A stretch of DNA of 12,443 nt. Origin: a virus. The translations under genes and the position numbers were made by a program. The notes under the pieces were generated by a model that was not told where the DNA came from, searched no databases, and saw only the letters and a list, made by a program, of their open reading frames with translations. Below, piece after piece: positions 1-10,089 of the stretch (position 1 is the stretch's first letter; the number at the start of each line of letters is the position of its first letter). Location of the stretch: the IMG/VR virus record IMGVR_UViG_3300030339_000025. One strand, given 5' to 3'.

Positions 1-121
1 TTAACTGGTCTTTATAAAGTTCTTCGTCAAAGAAAACAACTACATCTTTAGTGTCGTTGATGAATTTGACTTTCCGATTTCTAACCTTGGTTTTCAATAT
101 ACTCTTTAATTGTTTTTTCAC
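1..121 (-). CDS. Partial ORF running off the left edge of the window. An open frame reads ...VKKQLKSILKTKVRNRKVKFINDTKDVVVFFDEELYKDQL and continues past position 1. It overlaps the 3' end of tnpA in another frame and has no ATG, only a possible GTG at 119-121.
   Basis: Manual translation of the - strand at 1-124. The frame is closed by a TAA at 122-124 and open through position 1. The residues look protein-like (charged), but no start or homology is identifiable. Confidence 0.25.
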   Translation of the reverse strand, partial: MKKQLKSILKTKVRNRKVKFINDTKDVVVFFDEELYKDQL

Positions 122-500
122 TTACATTTCCGATTGACGACACAAAATAACCATCCGACCAAAATGTTCTTTCATTCCAAAACTGATTGCGTAAATAAAC
201 ACCATACAACTTCCATATTTCAATCGTAGACATTTGCTTTAACCTATTTACTATCTGTAGTGGTGATACGGATGGTTGGGTTGAAACTAATATATGTATG
301 TGATCCTCATCACCACATTCCATCAAATCAATATCGAAATCATACCTTTTTGATATGTTAGTCAAAATCAATTTCATATCATCACTGATTGGTGTTTTTA
401 ATAACCTTTTCCTATATTTCACCACAAATATCATATGATATTTCAATAAATACTTGGAATGATTTTTTGTCTTATAATCCTCAAAAACCATCATAACCAT
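81..500 (-). CDS. tnpA: IS200/IS605-family transposase TnpA (HuH, Y1 single-strand DNA transposase)
   Basis: 139 aa. N-terminal YHMIFVVKYRKRLL, HuH motif HIHILV, and C-terminal catalytic Tyr context SEKTIKEYIENQ are all typical of IS200-like Y1 transposases. It is divergently oriented to tnpB, as in IS605. Confidence 0.9.
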   Translation of the reverse strand: MVMMVFEDYKTKNHSKYLLKYHMIFVVKYRKRLLKTPISDDMKLILTNISKRYDFDIDLMECGDEDHIHILVSTQPSVSPLQIVNRLKQMSTIEIWKLYGVYLRNQFWNERTFWSDGYFVSSIGNVSEKTIKEYIENQG

Positions 501-584
501 AACTCTATATATAAATAATTTTTAGAAAAAAACCATATTTTTTTAATTATATATAGTTATACAAAAACATTATAATTATCATAA

Positions 585-1829
585 ATGAAAGTAATTAAAT
601 ATACATATAAATTCAGGCTTGATCCTAATCAAGAACAACAAACCTTACTAAACAAGCATTTTGGCTCTGTTAGATGGACTTATAATTACTTTCTAAACCA
701 ACGAAAAACGGAATACCTTAATAACAAAAAATCATTAAACTATTACGACCAAGCAGCAGAACTAACCCAAATCAAAAAAGTTAATGAATGGCTGAAAGAA
801 ATTAATAGTCAAACATTACAATACTCTCTGAAATGTCTTGATATGGCTTACCAAGGTTTCTTTAATAAAAGAACCAAATTTCCTAATTTTAAGTCAAAAC
901 GAAACAAAAATTCATTTACTATACCACAAAATGTTAGATATGATGGAACTAAATTAATTGTTCCAAAATTTCTTGATGGAATAGAAATGATAATGGAAAG
1001 ACAAATTAAAGGCATTATAAAACATTGTAATATATCAAAAACTCCTACTGGAAAATACTTTGTATCAATTCTAACTGAACTTGAATATCAACCTGTTAGA
1101 AAGACAAACCAATCAGTAGGAATAGATTTAGGTATAAAAGACTTTTTAGTGTTATCTAATGGAACGAAAATCAAGAACCATAGATTTCTAAAACACTACG
1201 AAAGAATTTTAGCTGAAAATCAAAAATATCTATCAAGAAAAACCAAACAATCAAATCGTTACGAAAAACAACGACTAAAACTTGCTAGAATTTATGAGAA
1301 AGTTACCAATTCTAGAATGGATTTAATTCATAAAACAACTAATAATCTAATTCATAATTTTGATATTATTTATTTAGAAGATTTAAATATTAAAGGAATG
1401 AGTAAAAGGTGTAAGCCAAAGCAAGATGAAAATGGAAAGTATTTACCTAATAATCAATCGGCAAAATCAGGATTAAATAAATCTATTTTAGATGTTGCTT
1501 GGGGAACTTTCATAGATACACTTGAATACAAAGCATTGTGGAATGACAAACAAGTTATTCATATTGATAGGTTCTTTCCATCTTCTAAAGCCTGTTCTAA
1601 ATGTGGCTGGATTAATAATAATTTAACCTTGAAAGATAGAAATTGGATTTGTCCTAAATGTGGTGAAAAGCATGATAGAGATATAAATGCCGCAATCAAT
1701 ATCCTTAATGAAGGATATCGTAAAAATATATCAGATGGAACGTCTGATTACGAGCGTGGAGCAAAAATAAGACCAATTTCGACTGGCACAAGCAACGAAA
1801 CGCTTAAAAAGAAGGAACTCGTTTCCTGA
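585..1829 (+). CDS. tnpB: IS605 OrfB / TnpB RNA-guided endonuclease-family protein. Structural relative of Cas12; in a eukaryotic virus context it would be Fanzor-like.
   Basis: 414 aa. The N-terminus YKFRLDPNQEQQTLLNKHFGSVRWTYN matches the OrfB_IS605 N-domain. RuvC-I is D in VGIDLGIKDF, RuvC-II is E in IIYLEDLNIKG. The zinc finger is CSKCGW...CPKCGEKHD, followed by RuvC-III RDINAAINI. All catalytic residues are present. Confidence 0.9.
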   Translation: MKVIKYTYKFRLDPNQEQQTLLNKHFGSVRWTYNYFLNQRKTEYLNNKKSLNYYDQAAELTQIKKVNEWLKEINSQTLQYSLKCLDMAYQGFFNKRTKFPNFKSKRNKNSFTIPQNVRYDGTKLIVPKFLDGIEMIMERQIKGIIKHCNISKTPTGKYFVSILTELEYQPVRKTNQSVGIDLGIKDFLVLSNGTKIKNHRFLKHYERILAENQKYLSRKTKQSNRYEKQRLKLARIYEKVTNSRMDLIHKTTNNLIHNFDIIYLEDLNIKGMSKRCKPKQDENGKYLPNNQSAKSGLNKSILDVAWGTFIDTLEYKALWNDKQVIHIDRFFPSSKACSKCGWINNNLTLKDRNWICPKCGEKHDRDINAAINILNEGYRKNISDGTSDYERGAKIRPISTGTSNETLKKKELVS

Positions 1830-1831
1830 AA

Positions 1832-1850
1832 CTAAAATATTTTATTTTAG
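1832..1850 (+). terminator. Perfect hairpin ctaaaata-ttt-tattttag, 2 nt after the tnpB stop codon. Either a transcript-end hairpin or the subterminal right-end hairpin of the insertion sequence.
   Basis: 8-bp perfect inverted repeat with a 3-nt loop, read directly from the sequence. Confidence 0.4.
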
Positions 1851-1931
1851 TAGTTCATTTAGCATACATTGAAATTATCAAAAGTTAATTAATTTTAATT
1901 TTTGAGTAATAAAAAATTTTATATATAGAAT

Positions 1932-3989
1932 ATGAAAATAACACAAGGAGTTTTAAAATATTGCAAAATTTATAATGTTACATTTGAAGATAAGTATTCC
2001 AATATAAAAACTATAAAATCAATTGAAAATTTCGATTCAAAATTTTCAAGTAATTCAGGTACGTCTCAAACTTCTACTGTTTTATCCAATAATAATAGTT
2101 ATTATAACGTAGTTGAAGAGAGCAATATAAATAATGGTCGAATATTATATAATTGTGATGTTGAAAATGGCAGATTTTTAAATTCTACATTCTTATCATT
2201 AAATAATGCTAATCATATTACTGATGGATATTTTAGTGGCTGCACTTTTTCTGGTTATACTATCAATGGCGGGCAATTTTTTGATTGTACAATACATTCT
2301 GGATGTACTTGGAATAATGGACAATGGAACGATGGAACTTTCAATGTTAGTTGGACTGGTGGAGTTTGGAATAAAGGAATTTTTCCATTTTTAATTTGGC
2401 CCGCTGGTATTTTTAATGGCGGTATTTTTAAATTTCCATCTGTATGGATTACAGGCGTTGCAAATGGCGGAATTTTTAGTGGAATAACTTGGAATCATGG
2501 TTTAGTTCGTAATGGAGATTTTCTTGATTGCACATTTATGAGTGGTTCTTTTAATAATGGAAATTTTAGTGATGGAACATTTATTGGTGGTATTTTTAAT
2601 AATGGAAAAATGGATAATTCAGTTATTAGCGGAGGTATTTTTAATGATGGTACAATTTCAAATTGTACAGTTAGTGGCAATACAGAAATTAATGGTGGTG
2701 ATTTTTCAGATACAATTATAAATGATGGTAAAATTGTTAATATGAATGGTACAAATTTAATTGTAAATTATGGCAAGTTCTATAATGGCACTTATGATAC
2801 TATACAATTTATAACTGGAGATATATATAATGGTTTATATTTGAATTCATCTGGTATTACATCAGGTTTAACAATACATAATGGTACATTTAAGAAGAGT
2901 GCATTTTGGCTAACTAATATACATAATGGAAATTTTACAAATTGTTATTCAGAAAATGTAAAATGGGATTATGGTATTTATACTGAAGGCTCAATGATGT
3001 TTAATCTTCCTGGGAGTTATTGGAATGATGGCTATTGGAATGATGGCATATTTACTGCGATTGATCCTATAGTTAGTATTCTTTCAAATGTGCAATCAAT
3101 TGATGCAATTACTACTACAACAACTGCTGCACCAACAACTACAACTACAACTACGATAGCACCACATTATATTGGTGAAAAAGTCAGTACAAATGGCGTG
3201 ATTTATGGCACTATTTTTTATCTATATTCTGGAGGTAAAAGCGGATTAATTTCTGCTAATGTAGATACCGCCACGATTACAGATCCAGATAGTTTTTGGG
3301 CTAGTGGCTCTGGTGGATATCAAAGCACAGGAGGACGCGGCACATCAATAGGAACTGGGCAAGCAAATAGTACTGCTATGCTAGCACAGCCTAAAACTAA
3401 TGGGCATGTAATAAAATATTGTCATGACTTATCATTAGGTGGATTCACTGATTGGTTTCTTGGTTCAAAATATGAGGTATTAGCACAATATTCAAATAGA
3501 TCACTTATTGGCGGTTTTTCTAATAACGGATATTGGTCAAGTACAGAATCTAATTATGATCATAGTATTGCTATTAACTTTGGAAATGGAGTTGCAGATA
3601 CGTGGTTAAAACATGATCATTTTTATGTTCGTGCAATTCGCTTTTTTGATGATACAATTGGAACATATACAAATGTTATAATTGATAATACTTCAAACGA
3701 TATAATAATAAACGATGTACAAATTGGCAATTCTTCTATTTTTGGTGTTATTTTTCCTATATCTACTGGTTCACATTACGTAGGAACTACTACATTAAAT
3801 TCTGAACTAACTACATTGATGATAAATTTTTCTAATATAACAGATAATAATCAAAGTATAAGTGTAAATATTAACTCTGTAAATTATTGTTATAATATGC
3901 CACATTCACCTATAATATCAATTCCTATAAATTTTATTAAAGGTCAAAATATTAATATAAGTGCTATTAATGCTAATTGTGTGTTTTAA
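1932..3989 (+). CDS. Large repeat-rich putative surface, fibre or adhesin protein. The N-terminal ~350 aa are roughly 7-residue Gly/aromatic repeats (NGGIF, NDGTF, SGxF) suggesting a beta-solenoid. Then comes an oligo-Thr linker (TTTTTAAPTTTTTTTIAP), then a DUF1566/Fib_succ_major (Lcl C-terminal)-like domain, then an Ile/Asn-rich C-terminal domain.
   Basis: 685 aa. The DUF1566-like signatures are GGFTDWFLGSKYEVLAQY (W.LP..EL..L-like) and GYWSSTE...AINFGNG......YVRAIRFF (yWSST....vRcVR-like). The Thr run is encoded by the ACN-rich tract at about 3107-3165. Confidence 0.75.
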   Translation: MKITQGVLKYCKIYNVTFEDKYSNIKTIKSIENFDSKFSSNSGTSQTSTVLSNNNSYYNVVEESNINNGRILYNCDVENGRFLNSTFLSLNNANHITDGYFSGCTFSGYTINGGQFFDCTIHSGCTWNNGQWNDGTFNVSWTGGVWNKGIFPFLIWPAGIFNGGIFKFPSVWITGVANGGIFSGITWNHGLVRNGDFLDCTFMSGSFNNGNFSDGTFIGGIFNNGKMDNSVISGGIFNDGTISNCTVSGNTEINGGDFSDTIINDGKIVNMNGTNLIVNYGKFYNGTYDTIQFITGDIYNGLYLNSSGITSGLTIHNGTFKKSAFWLTNIHNGNFTNCYSENVKWDYGIYTEGSMMFNLPGSYWNDGYWNDGIFTAIDPIVSILSNVQSIDAITTTTTAAPTTTTTTTIAPHYIGEKVSTNGVIYGTIFYLYSGGKSGLISANVDTATITDPDSFWASGSGGYQSTGGRGTSIGTGQANSTAMLAQPKTNGHVIKYCHDLSLGGFTDWFLGSKYEVLAQYSNRSLIGGFSNNGYWSSTESNYDHSIAINFGNGVADTWLKHDHFYVRAIRFFDDTIGTYTNVIIDNTSNDIIINDVQIGNSSIFGVIFPISTGSHYVGTTTLNSELTTLMINFSNITDNNQSISVNINSVNYCYNMPHSPIISIPINFIKGQNINISAINANCVF

Positions 3990-6662: not shown

Positions 6663-7690
6663 CTAATTTGCAGTTATAAACATTTTTCCGTTTCTTCTAG
6701 CAATCCAAGTATTATATTTCTCCATTATTGGTGACCACATTACACCATCATAATATCCTTTTTGTATAATTGAATCTTTTGAATTTCTTAATAGTTTATG
6801 TGTTGATTCTGTTAATTGTGTATAATTAGCATAATTTTTAGAGAATATTCTATCTGCTGTATATCCAGCTAAAATACTTAATATTTGAGTTCTATCGTGA
6901 AAATCTTCATATTTTCCTCTTATAGCAAAAGATTTTGATGACCTTATACTACCATCACCATCTATAATTCCTTCTATTATTTTTTTTAATGTTTTTAAAT
7001 TTAAATTAAACATATTAAAATTAATTTTTTTATCTGGAATCAATTTTAAGAAAATATCTTTATATTTACTTCCAATTCTTATATCAATAACATCACAAAT
7101 TTGAATATCAGTATAATCATAAATATCAATTTTTTTCACAGATACTAGAGTGTCTTTATTTTTTTTTTATCACCATTATATCTATAGTATCGTTTTCTTT
7201 TACTATAAGTATATCCAATTTTTAAATTATTTAAACTATTTAAAATTTTATCAACAACATCATCATTCTTTGTATAATTTTGAGTAATTCCAATTCCATA
7301 TTTAACAATGTGACCATCTGTTATAATAATGCCTAACAAATATGCTAAATTTTCATCTATATTTTCAAAATTAGCAGTTCTTTTACAAGATGTTAAAATT
7401 TTATCATATTGTTTTAAATTTTCTGACTCACATATTTTTATTTTTCCATTATAATCTTCTATAACCATTTTATGACTTGGTGTTGAGATCATTGAAATTC
7501 TTCTACTATCAATAAATATAATAGGTCCATTATAATTATCTATTTTTATATTTTTTATTTTATCCCAAATTAAAAAATTTTCAATTATATCGTAAGATAA
7601 TACAAAATCGCCAATTATTAGTTCATTAAATTTTTTCCAACCATTTATAGTTAAACATTCAGTGTCTATATCTACGTAACTATTTTCCAC
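6663..7690 (-). pseudogene. Intein-like Hint domain with an embedded double-motif LAGLIDADG homing endonuclease. Split into two ORFs (7145-7690 and 6663-7139) in different frames. It ends with the intein-type terminal Asn immediately followed by TAG.
   Basis: Block A is CLTINGWKKFNELIIGDFVLSYD. Block B is ISTPSHKMVI (TxxH). LAGLIDADG motif 1 is LAYLLGIIITDGHI, in the first ORF. LAGLIDADG motif 2 is IIEGIIDGDGSI, in the second ORF. A block F/G-like C-terminus YYDG...NTWIARRNGKMFITAN is followed by a stop. The first ORF has no ATG (it begins with GTG), with an in-frame TGA at 7694-7696 only 11 codons upstream of the Cys. A T10 run lies at about 7158-7167, next to the frame break. Confidence 0.7.
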
Positions 7691-8510
7691 TATTCAATAA
7701 TTTTTCTTGTTTTCTTCTCTTTCGCTCTTGGTAAGTTATACCCTTGATAACATGTTTATCAATCTCTTTTTGATATTTCTCTAAATAATCATTTGAATTT
7801 TCCAATCTATTTTTAGCCATATCAAGATAATTGGCTGAAATATCAATACCGACATAATTGCAACCAAAAATTTTGCAACACACTGGAACAGTGCCTGACC
7901 CGCAATAAGGATCCAAAACAATTTTATCTTTATCATCATCAAATATAGAATATATAATTCTTGTTGGTATATCTAAAGAAAAAGGCGCTGGATGTGGATT
8001 ATTATTTTCTGGCATTATATCCCAAATAGCCATCATATTTGCATGTTTTGGAAGTAATTCCTTGCCTATTTTAGAATGATTTGGCTTATATAGCCAGTAT
8101 ATCCGTTCATCTGCTTGCCAGAACCTCCAACCTCTTAAATTACCTGTTATTTTTCTATTCCAAACAATTTCTTGTTTAATCATCCATTGTGTTTTATGAA
8201 GCCAAAGTATTGGATGAATCATATTTCCATTTACCCATCGACATTTATGATTATAAAAAAAAGATCCACCTGGTTTTATAGTTCTATATATTTCGTTTAG
8301 AACCTTTATTTGATTTTCTTGATAGATATCTTCTGGTATATTATCATCATAAGTATCATATTCAACTTTTTTAATTAGTGCGCCACTATTATTCTTCTTA
8401 TTATATACTGGACTCGTAATTCCAAGATCAAAATAATCAGAATCAATTTTTTGTAAAGTTTGTAGTGTATCACCTAATATTAATTCGTTTATTGGCCTCA
8501 TAAAATTCAT
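7680..8510 (-). CDS. DNA methyltransferase, beta-class N4-cytosine/N6-adenine type. The motif IV-like SPVY precedes motif I.
   Basis: 276 aa. DLGITSPVYN is a (D/S)PP(Y/F)-like motif IV near the N-terminus. VLDPYCGSGTVPVCCKIFGCNYVGIDIS is the FxGxG AdoMet motif I near the C-terminus. This order defines the beta permutation (PF01555-like). Confidence 0.85.
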   Translation of the reverse strand: MNFMRPINELILGDTLQTLQKIDSDYFDLGITSPVYNKKNNSGALIKKVEYDTYDDNIPEDIYQENQIKVLNEIYRTIKPGGSFFYNHKCRWVNGNMIHPILWLHKTQWMIKQEIVWNRKITGNLRGWRFWQADERIYWLYKPNHSKIGKELLPKHANMMAIWDIMPENNNPHPAPFSLDIPTRIIYSIFDDDKDKIVLDPYCGSGTVPVCCKIFGCNYVGIDISANYLDMAKNRLENSNDYLEKYQKEIDKHVIKGITYQERKRRKQEKLLNSGK

Positions 8511-8922: not shown

Positions 8923-10089
8923 TTATGGACAGCCAAAATATATAGTTGAATTTATTGTAATTATAGAAAATATATCTGGATCAGGTAAAATAAGTGATGT
9001 TCCAATAACAGTATAAAAATTATCAGAATCGTCTACTACTCTAGATGTAGTTATATATGATTGAGAACCACTAAAAGGACCAGCGCAATATGTATTATGT
9101 GTAATACAATTTTGTAATATATACCAATATAATTGTAATGTTGTAGTTGTAGTTGTAGGCACGACAGTTGTAGTTGTAGTAGGAACAATAGTTGTTGTGG
9201 TTGTTGGTGCCGCAGTTGTTGTAGTTATTGGTGTCGCAGTGGTTGTAGTTGTTGGTGCCGCAGTGGTTGTAGTTGTTGTAGGCGGTATAGTTGTAGTTGT
9301 AGTTGTAGTTGGAATAACTGTTGTAGTTGTAGTTGTAGTTGTTGTTCCAGTAATTAAATAAAAATCGTAAATTGTATTTTTTGTAATATCAATAGTAATA
9401 CCTGTAGGTGTATATCCATTTGCACTACAATTTACTATAAATGATCCAGGTGGAACAGCAAGTGAGTAATATCCATTTTCATTAGTATTACTATATACAC
9501 CAAGCGAATTTATAGTAATAGTTGCATTTGATATTGTTGCCCCAGTTATCGTATAAACTTCACCTTCAATAATTTCAAAAGTTCCTATATTACATTGATA
9601 ATATACTACACCATCTGAAATATCATTGAAATAATTTCCACTTCTACAGGACATTTTACTTAAATATTGATTTTTTAATAACATTCCTGGTGTAATATCA
9701 TTAAAATATCTATTTATAACTATTTCATTTCTATAATTATTTGTATATAAAATCTTATATCCAGTATAAAAATTTGAAAAAGCTATCGCAGGATTACTTA
9801 AATCAAATGTTCCAGAATTTATTATTGGTTCAGTATAAGTAATATAAACTATATCACCGATGGTGAAATTATTTTCAATTTCAGTATATAATTTTATGTA
9901 ACCTTTATAATTAGAGTATGTTTCTAAAATTTTAACAGCATTTCTAATATTTATATAACTATTGGTTTTTAAATTTATTTGACTTTGGATCAACGGCATG
10001 TTGCCACTTAATGAACTTGATACATTTGATGATTTTGCATTTGTTGCAATAGCTATAGGCTTTTTATTTTGAATAATTAAACGTGGCAT
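8923..10089 (-). CDS. Putative surface or fibre protein. The N-terminal region has a carboxypeptidase-regulatory-like (Cna-B-like) beta-sandwich segment. Then comes a long oligo-Thr linker, (T5-9 [AAP/IPP/IVP/VVP]) repeated 8 times. Then a small Cys-containing C-terminal domain.
   Basis: 388 aa. NGYYSLAVPPGSFIVNCSANGYTPTGITIDITKNTIYDFYL resembles CarboxypepD_reg. The linker is TTTTTTTTTVIPTTTTTTTIPPTTTTTTAAPTTTTTATPITTTTAAPTTTTTIVPTTTTTVVPTTTTTT. The C-terminus contains C..H..YC. Confidence 0.75.
   Translation of the reverse strand: MPRLIIQNKKPIAIATNAKSSNVSSSLSGNMPLIQSQINLKTNSYINIRNAVKILETYSNYKGYIKLYTEIENNFTIGDIVYITYTEPIINSGTFDLSNPAIAFSNFYTGYKILYTNNYRNEIVINRYFNDITPGMLLKNQYLSKMSCRSGNYFNDISDGVVYYQCNIGTFEIIEGEVYTITGATISNATITINSLGVYSNTNENGYYSLAVPPGSFIVNCSANGYTPTGITIDITKNTIYDFYLITGTTTTTTTTTVIPTTTTTTTIPPTTTTTTAAPTTTTTATPITTTTAAPTTTTTIVPTTTTTVVPTTTTTTLQLYWYILQNCITHNTYCAGPFSGSQSYITTSRVVDDSDNFYTVIGTSLILPDPDIFSIITINSTIYFGCP
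9127..9352. repeat. Tandem hexanucleotide-type coding repeat, (GTTGTA/GTTGTG)n on the + strand, encoding the oligo-Thr linker. It is similar in inverse orientation to the ACN tract at about 3107-3165.
   Basis: Visible tgtagttgtagttgtagg... periodicity in the sequence. Confidence 0.7.

Follow-up and report, generated by a model that had tools for sequence, protein, structure and literature searches.

An IS605-type element in the window

The DNA analysed here is a stretch of 12,443 nt from the IMG/VR virus record IMGVR_UViG_3300030339_000025, hereafter called the window. Close to its left edge, at positions 16-1858, it carries an insertion sequence (IS) of the IS200/IS605 family with a length of 1,843 bp and the IS605-type layout, in which the transposase gene tnpA and the nuclease gene tnpB are divergent. 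The reading put forward here, with high confidence, is that of an IS605-type element with TnpB and its omega-RNA in a huge phage, represented in the window by a mosaic copy. Features lie on the plus strand unless stated otherwise.

The gene tnpA (81-500, minus strand) encodes a Y1 (HUH) transposase of 139 aa. It matched PF01797 Y1_Tnp with an E value of 6e-35 and the NCBIfam model transpos_IS200 (IS200/IS605 transposase) with 129 bits at a cut-off of 55. The HUH motif H67-I-H69, Tyr134 and Gln138 were present, and the protein showed homology to TnpA proteins of known structure (Sulfolobus, ISHp608 and ISDra2). Fourteen contigs encoded an identical TnpA protein, with at least three different contexts on the left.

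The gene tnpB (585-1829) encodes an RNA-guided endonuclease of 414 aa with HTH_OrfB_IS605, OrfB_IS605 and Cas12f1-like TNB domains. It scored 331 bits with the NCBIfam model guided_TnpB ('RNA-guided endonuclease TnpB family'; cut-off 100) and 382 bits with the narrower 'exception' model IS200_TnpB, under the cut-off of 425. The RuvC residues D181, E265 and D366 were retained, as were the CxxC motifs of the zinc finger at 337-340 and 356-359 (C337, C340, C356, C359). ISDra2 TnpB was matched over the full length (E 1.5e-65, 225 bits), whereas mimivirus L79 was matched over residues 152-379 only (E 1e-10, 44 bits) and no Fanzor structure other than L79 matched at E ≤ 1e-3. An earlier reading of the window from its letters and open reading frames, the sequence-only reading, had described an intact IS200/IS605 element with a Y1 TnpA and a TnpB that keep all catalytic residues, and the profiles and residues agree with it. 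The IS607 family was ruled out, since TnpA is a Y1 HUH enzyme and not a serine recombinase and the IS607_TnpB model reached 171 bits, below its cut-off of 350.

Between the two genes lies the divergent intergenic region (501-584, no strand assigned). Homology of tnpA-less copies to the window resumes at 506-538. The tnpB promoter presumably lies in this region from about 506 onward, since that part is kept upstream of tnpB in tnpA-less copies. The GC content of the element, 0.25-0.30, resembled that of its surroundings, as had been stated for the AT content, and the window had about 25% GC throughout.

Within tnpB, the 60-nt bin at 1125-1184 showed an overall identity of 0.94 among 39 tnpB copies, and of 0.87 when third codon positions alone are counted, far above its neighbours. 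It encodes SVGIDLGIKDFLVLSNGTKI around RuvC Asp181 and was the sole such peak outside the omega-RNA region; an internal promoter, an RNA element and a gene-conversion tract are candidate causes. In the related loci L058, L068, L049, L099 and L066, a 3-nt deletion aligned to window 1650-1661 turns the second zinc-finger motif, CPKC, from CxxC into CxC (C-K-C) and leaves the open reading frame (ORF) intact.

Ends of the element and its insertion site

Related copies were gathered from IMG/VR (13 close copies) and from metagenomes (about 65), together with contigs encoding the identical TnpA. On seven independent contigs with unrelated left flanks, identity to the window began exactly at position 11. 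More than 30 close and distant copies had the same layout on the left side: their flanks were unrelated, and an invariant TTTAT was followed, after about 10 nt of spacer, by an imperfect hairpin. In the window, this TTTAT target pentanucleotide, which is also the predicted target-adjacent motif (TAM) of TnpB, lies at 11-15, in the flank and outside the element. The left end (LE) was placed at 16-80 from the homology starting at 11 and from DNA folding. Its subterminal imperfect hairpin (26-70) has an outer stem at 26-31/65-70, an inner stem at 37-45/51-59 with a T41-C55 mismatch, and a loop at 46-50. The hairpin motif, GTCAAAGAAAACAACTACA-TCTTTAG-TGTAGTT.GATGAATTTGAC, was kept in about 30 copies.

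On the right side, 48/48 distinct aligned copies finished in a hairpin followed by (T)AGTAGTTCAT, i.e. ...GTAGTTCAT, and had nothing in common beyond. The right-end (RE) hairpin of the window, CTAAAATA-TTT-TATTTTAG, lies at 1832-1850. An 8-bp hairpin had been noted there, and DNA folding supported it with -6.2 kcal/mol (z = -5.05). The final bases of the element and right-end cleavage motif, TTCAT, lie at 1854-1858 according to the copy alignment and the junction of a nested insertion. The window copy has a subterminal hairpin at each end; in the IS200/IS605 family the two resemble each other. In about 17 related copies the LE and RE tips share CTACA-TCTTTAG-TGTAG, whereas the RE hairpin of the window is of a variant type, with a tip unrelated to that of its LE.

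The insertion rule was read from a nested element. In L078 and L077, tnpB is split by another element with the same end type in opposite orientation, and L051 represents the empty site. The nested element (L078:1073-2409, also in L077) was inserted after tnpB residue ~330, and the corresponding empty site lies at L051:3931-4007. Comparison of the empty site ccta-TTTAT-atggattac (L051) with the filled site ccta-TTTAT-(element ending in ...GTAGTTCAT)-atgaactac (L078) showed that insertion was base-exact 3' of TTTAT, without target duplication and with TTCAT as the element end. Insertion of this kind is a hallmark of the IS200/IS605 family. The nested right-end junction formed the palindrome GTAGTTCAT/ATGAACTAC. 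The inner TnpB was about 42% identical to the window TnpB, and the left and right ends were of the same type. Because the inner element sits in tnpB, its predicted guide would match the tnpB coding sequence of sibling elements. When the joined flanks of every complete copy were compared with all loci, the nested insertion of L078 remained the sole case with an empty site.

Applied to the window, the junction rule from L051 and L078 (3' of TTTAT, end TTCAT) delimits the element to 16-1858. The sequence-only reading had given 60-1931, a span that loses 44 nt of the left end and takes in 73 nt of flank. Its left boundary of 60 has to be replaced by 15/16, given the copy homology from window 11, the TTTAT at 11-15 and the hairpin at 26-70, and its right boundary of 1931 by 1858, where all 48 aligned copies stop. 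Aligning other copies, the route that had been suggested for finding the ends, located both of them together with the TTTAT target. The sequence at 1859-1931 is flank and holds the predicted guide-encoding bases and the leader of the next gene.

Upstream of the element, a 69-aa ORF that is whole in L018 has a TAA stop made of the last T of TTTAT and the first two element bases (window 1-17). The insertion is at the extreme 3' end of this ORF and supplies its stop; without the insertion, the ORF would be 4-5 codons longer.

The omega-RNA and its predicted guide

The last 160 nt of 44 distinct copies were aligned for the analysis of the omega-RNA (alignment A2). RNAalifold returned six helices with 32 pairs, and 18 of the 32 showed compensatory double changes. 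Pairing in register was found in 98.8% of cells, compared with 26-41% when the partners were slid by 1-3 columns, and the covariation score was 0.234 as opposed to at most 0.055 in the slid alignments. The observed values were reached by 0/500 shuffles. In the window, the omega-RNA scaffold extends over 1705-1858 and comprises H1 (1730-1737/1741-1748), H2 (1752-1757/1800-1805), H3 (1771-1777/1782-1787), H4 (1814-1816/1824-1826), H5 (1828-1831/1851-1856) and H6 (1832-1839/1843-1850). Four of the six helices lie inside the coding region of tnpB. There, third-codon-position identity among 39 copies was 0.81-0.86 over the omega-RNA compared with 0.56-0.70 across most of the gene, which indicates a constraint on the nucleotides and not on the protein alone.

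A covariance-model search, which had been named as a check, was run with a model built from A2 and gave a single site in the window, 1705-1858, with 170 bits and an E value of 2e-29; the next match had 9.7 bits. An omega-RNA had been expected at the 3' end of tnpB and the adjoining tail, at about 1650-1931. Its place was thus right, but the scaffold ends at 1858 and the remainder is flank. In two further elements, the distant nested one and an IS of Clostridium perfringens, the same model matched more weakly, immediately downstream of tnpB. A scan of the whole window with Rfam 15 at E ≤ 1 yielded no match, and a blastn search of the tnpB 3' end and right end against phages matched the zinc-finger/RuvC coding part only and left the omega-RNA unmatched. 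The omega-RNA is a sequence-divergent version outside Rfam 15.

The sequence 3' of TTCAT, from 1859 onward, was different in every copy, as expected of a guide read from the flank. The predicted guide-encoding flank of the window, TTAGCATACATTGAAATTAT, was placed at 1859-1878 from its position 3' of the right end. A guide length of about 16-20 nt was assumed from known TnpB systems. The TAM of TnpB is inferred to be TTTAT, from its place and by analogy with ISGst2 TnpB2, for which TTTAT is the experimentally verified TAM and equals the left-end target (preprint 10.1101/2023.03.14.532601). In Sulfolobus, solo tnpB elements likewise have TTTAT as a conserved motif in their left flank (PMC10640517).

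Mobility and distribution of the lineage

TnpA proteins with 96-100% identity were found with at least five distinct left flanks and at least four distinct right flanks. Most copies in the census had tnpB only; complete tnpA genes were few, and deletion remnants also occurred (L037, L038/L092, L083), a composition typical of a living IS family. Several contigs or assemblies held at least two copies. The repeated insertion contexts, the nested insertion and the census argue that the lineage is, or recently was, mobile.

The lineage was found on viral and metagenomic DNA. Close copies were carried by 13 IMG/VR viral contigs, and related copies occurred on viral contigs of up to 501 kb. A collection of 5.8 billion proteins held more than 120 TnpB clusters at 74-100% identity, all of them metagenomic. 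A search by exact peptide words, which may miss some relatives, covered 185,579 prokaryotic species with a single genome per species and turned up no close TnpB relative, the best match having at most 44% identity. Among deposited phages, 452 records contained TnpB homologues and 107 contained TnpA homologues, all below 60% identity to the lineage, and a megablast search of the window against 50,697 phage records gave no match.

The nearest relatives from a cultured bacterium, L025 and L028, occurred twice on one contig of Clostridium perfringens (WNVL01000027.1), with 38% identity for TnpB and 37% for TnpA. In these copies, tnpA and tnpB are in tandem as in IS608 and not divergent, and the weak omega-RNA match follows directly after tnpB. 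Genes of the DUF723 family adjoined copies repeatedly, on the left in L016 and L017, as a fragment on the right in L020 and L023, and at L118:16122-17174. PHROGs designates DUF723 relatives as homing or HNH endonucleases, and the element seems to occupy regions rich in homing endonucleases. The possibility that a single DUF723 gene had been split by the IS was rejected, as a cross-join of all left and right flanks rebuilt no open frame.

Mosaic structure of the window copy

The window copy consists of two segments of different affiliation. The segment 16-1341 belongs to the autonomous lineage and is 100% identical to L023 and L033, which bear the canonical right end; identity to these copies extends from 11 to ~1341. 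The segment 1342-1858, with the variant right end, belongs to the LE-less lineage and is 72-85% identical to L023 and L033. Within it, positions ~1611-1810 were 90-98% identical to the tnpB-only copies L032, L047 and L040. The breakpoint at 1341 was present in six assemblies from different samples, and the tnpB frame is intact across it. The canonical RE tip (CTACA-TCTTTAG-TGTAG) occurred in about 17 LE-bearing copies, and in about 16 of 20 LE-less copies the RE hairpin had drifted yet still paired. The window type alone combined a left end with a variant right end. The dN/dS of tnpB was 0.17 in LE-less copies and 0.16 in LE-bearing copies, i.e. both are under purifying selection.

We read the window copy as a recombinant between a resident LE-less tnpB/omega-RNA upstream of a 685-aa gene and an autonomous copy. 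The left end, tnpA and some 750 nt at the start of tnpB would stem from the autonomous lineage, and the final third of tnpB together with the omega-RNA and the right end from the resident LE-less one. Excision of this copy by TnpA is doubtful, because its RE hairpin has drifted from the sequence that its TnpA presumably recognises, and the same doubt applies to its mobility. The function of TnpB and the omega-RNA is probably intact. The description 'probably active' in the sequence-only reading therefore holds for the lineage, with its five or more sites and the nested insertion, and does not extend to the window copy, a mosaic with mismatched end hairpins.

The LE-less copies raise the question whether the element is domesticated or a fossil, with tnpB and the omega-RNA kept for another role, such as cutting competing phages, and TnpA irrelevant. 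About 16 LE-less copies keep a full-length tnpB under the purifying selection given above and a pairing RE hairpin that has drifted, and the window copy has its 3' part from their lineage. A dedicated role should, however, fix the guide, whereas the guide region varies and equals the local flank as in mobile elements, and the window copy bears an intact tnpA and left end. Domestication is considered unlikely.

Somewhat less likely still is an assembly artefact, in which the combination of LE, tnpA and this right end would have arisen from collapsed IS copies and the true locus would be tnpB-only beside the 685-aa gene. Nearly all contigs of the window's genome break within the element, the window and L016 have the element and the right flank in common and differ in the left flank, and the stretch 11-1341 is 100% identical to copies elsewhere over a length exceeding short-read k-mers. 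These points are opposed by the junction of tnpA to this tnpB and the 685-aa gene in three assemblies from different samples (window, L016 and L112), by the six assemblies that span the breakpoint and by the unbroken tnpB frame.

Replicon and host

The replicon was assigned from replication, modification and homing genes and from best matches to huge-phage genomes. Genes flanking the related loci included a UvsX-like recombinase (5e-55), a DnaB-like helicase (3e-63), a clamp loader and Tad3 (4e-23), an inhibitor of a bacterial defence system (anti-Thoeris), and many homing endonucleases were present in these loci. The window's own genome, extended via gene-sharing contigs, encoded a phage-type Dam, NUMOD3 and HNH homing endonucleases and sugar-modification enzymes. 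Its helicase had its best matches, at 41% identity over the full length, in 'uncultured phage' genomes of 735, 642, 636 and 634 kb. The window also encodes a polynucleotide kinase-phosphatase (PNKP) with an N-terminal kinase and a C-terminal phosphatase, the domain order of phage T4 PNKP, and its best matches were in uncultured phage genomes of 462 kb and 595 kb. An NCBI assembly with two copies of the element contained PhageMetallopep and a DNA polymerase B, and a bacterial IF3 was among the neighbouring genes. Runs of same-strand genes overlapped by 4 nt. By these genes and matches, the replicon is that of a huge bacteriophage and not of a giant eukaryotic virus.

Shine-Dalgarno-like motifs were found upstream of 0/17 window genes, compared with a background of 4.8%. 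The sequence-only reading was thus correct in describing a genome that does without Shine-Dalgarno sequences. Bacteroidota largely lack initiation led by Shine-Dalgarno sequences, and a host of the Bacteroidota type would explain the missing motifs. The best-matching phages have the same sizes as the largest 'Mahaphage' genomes, which are predicted to replicate in Bacteroidetes (Al-Shayeb et al. 2020; PMC7162821). The host probably belongs to the Bacteroidota. The leaders of window genes were A-rich, and TATATA-like motifs occurred about 10 nt before several start codons.

On this evidence, it is very unlikely that the element is an ordinary chromosomal IS of an AT-rich bacterium and the contig a bacterial or prophage region. 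Such an origin would fit the parts of the window's genome that were read, which showed no virion structural gene and contained sugar-modification genes, and also the SusC-like TonB-dependent receptor gene on L018, the contig with the left flank. Against it stand the failure to find a close TnpB relative in the 185,579 species genomes as opposed to its presence on 13 IMG/VR viral contigs, surroundings dense in homing endonucleases and in small ORFs without known function, the best matches to phage genomes of 462-735 kb, and the two-copy NCBI assembly with its phage metallopeptidase and DNA polymerase B. The case of a bacterial IS605 OrfB on a bacterial replicon, which had been named as the one that would make the element ordinary, applies in part: TnpB is of the ordinary bacterial type, but the replicon is a phage.

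The suggestion that a giant eukaryotic virus carries a Fanzor-like nuclease together with a Y1 transposase is extremely improbable and was not borne out: about 25% GC, missing Shine-Dalgarno motifs, related copies on viral contigs of up to 501 kb and prokaryotic species genomes without a close relative would suit it, but TnpB matches ISDra2 far better than L79 (225 compared with 44 bits) and the IS200_TnpB model better than the IS607 type, the neighbouring genes (UvsX-like, DnaB, Tad3, phage Dam, PhageMetallopep, bacterial IF3) are of phage and bacterial type, same-strand gene runs overlap by 4 nt, the PNKP and helicase have their best matches in huge-phage genomes, and giant-virus hallmark families were not among the families found near related loci.

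Several points weigh against the preferred reading of a mosaic IS605-type element in a huge phage. Insertion at the window's own site is deduced from relatives, and an exact IMG/VR search for the predicted IS-less joint TTTAT/TTAGCATACATTG (TTTAT plus right flank) and for the right flank alone found neither an IS-less allele nor the flank, so that the window's own virus is absent from IMG/VR in that form. The left flank in the window amounts to 10 bases only. L016 has the same element and right flank with another left flank, and this conflict implies copy recombination or a repeat assembly join in at least one contig. The Fisher p of ~1e-5 for the association of LE and RE types ignores the shared ancestry of the copies. 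For the guide length and for the 5' end of the omega-RNA, assumed values were used. About 40 kb of the genome to which the window belongs could be read, and no capsid, portal or terminase gene was seen there. The equation of the best-matching LR7565xx records with Mahaphage genomes is drawn from genome size only.

Other genes of the window and its left-flank contig

The contig supplying the left flank carries, at L018:5989-9264, a 1091-aa gene resembling SusC/TonB-dependent receptors (CarboxypepD_reg, Plug and outer-membrane beta-barrel). It is of the Bacteroidota type and unusual on a phage contig, and may be either an auxiliary gene or a hint of a cellular contig. In the window, a free-standing LAGLIDADG-like homing endonuclease (6663-7690, minus strand) follows, and overlaps by 10 nt, an N6/N4 DNA methyltransferase (7680-8510, minus strand). 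The LAGLIDADG-like gene was split (181 + 158 aa) in the window and in L105-L109, L111 and L113, and single with 341-342 aa in L016, L110, L112 and L114; the window allele looks disrupted. Two large proteins, encoded at 1932-3989 (plus strand) and 8923-10089 (minus strand), contain long poly-threonine/proline linkers, e.g. TTTTTAAPTTTTTTT. One of them has pentapeptide-like repeats and an Lcl_C-like domain and the other a CarboxypepD_reg-like domain, and both may be surface or fibre proteins.

Proposed mechanism and significance

By analogy with IS608, ISDra2 and ISGst elements, TnpA would excise and insert one DNA strand ('peel and paste') by recognising both end hairpins. The tnpB transcript would be processed to the omega-RNA, with its 3' end reading into the flank from 1859 to ~1878. 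TnpB with this omega-RNA would cut TTTAT plus flank, i.e. the IS-less allele, whether vacated or naive, and recombinational repair from an IS-bearing copy would restore or spread the element, in a phage also into co-infecting genomes. With many genome copies and co-infecting relatives per cell, the process would amount to homing. Homing into co-infecting phages is named as a mode in a review of OMEGA systems (PMC13565253).

A further-reaching interpretation is offered tentatively, as a possibility with less than even chances. Huge phages of Bacteroidota-like hosts may be the only replicons with this TnpB/omega-RNA lineage, whose many LE-less copies, out of reach for TnpA, would persist independently of transposition. 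They may work as RNA-guided homing endonucleases, converting the IS-less alleles of co-infecting phages ('non-restorative homing'), or serve against rival phages as weapons. The window copy might then be a resident LE-less copy to which recombination with an autonomous one returned tnpA and a left end.

Each component has been described before, namely the IS200/IS605 architecture, the TnpB omega-RNA, the TTTAT TAM and TnpB in phages. Mildly unusual features are limited to two, the mosaic structure and the RE drift decoupled from tnpB conservation. The main value of the analysis is corrective: the reading as Fanzor and giant virus is wrong, and a probable host of the Bacteroidota type would account for the lack of Shine-Dalgarno motifs. 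In LE-less copies, the RE hairpin drifts by compensatory changes with tnpB still under selection, so that the constraints of RNA structure and of TnpA recognition can be separated, and these copies hint that TnpB can persist without ends that TnpA can mobilise. The lineage comprises over 120 protein clusters, with several copies in a phage genome, and offers a natural dataset on the spread of TnpB and omega-RNA among huge phages. The compact TnpB of 414 aa, with a defined scaffold and a predicted TTTAT TAM, is a candidate miniature genome editor, like many others.

Comparison with known systems

The element resembles IS605 of Helicobacter pylori and the IS605 group of the IS200/IS605 family in its divergent Y1 HUH TnpA and TnpB, in subterminal hairpins at both ends without terminal inverted repeats, in insertion 3' of a fixed AT-rich pentanucleotide without duplication, and in tnpB-only copies that outnumber the autonomous ones. 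It differs in a TnpA that is about 40-44% identical to Helicobacter phage/IS605 TnpA, in the target TTTAT, in the huge-phage replicon and in the mismatched end hairpins.

With ISDra2 TnpB of Deinococcus radiodurans (PDB 8BF8, 8EXA, 8H1J), the window TnpB shares full-length homology and the same RuvC and zinc-finger residues, and in both systems the omega-RNA extends over the 3' end of tnpB and the right end. The TAM of ISDra2 is TTGAT, whereas TTTAT is inferred here.

Mimivirus L79 (PDB 9B0L), a TnpB-like protein grouped with Fanzor2, is likewise a distant RuvC nuclease of the TnpB family on a large virus. The match to it is partial, as given above, and the replicon of the window is a bacteriophage. 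According to a review (PMC13565253), Fanzor2 is associated with G-rich TAMs and with serine recombinases of the IS607 type.

In its predicted TAM and proposed biology, the element is likened to ISGst2 TnpB2 of Geobacillus stearothermophilus, whose TAM 5'-TTTAT-3' is the motif flanking the left end in the window. ISGst2 TnpB2 cuts the donor joint after excision by TnpA, which favours retention of the transposon (Meers et al., 10.1101/2023.03.14.532601). The host replicon of ISGst2 is a bacterial chromosome, whereas that of the window is a phage.

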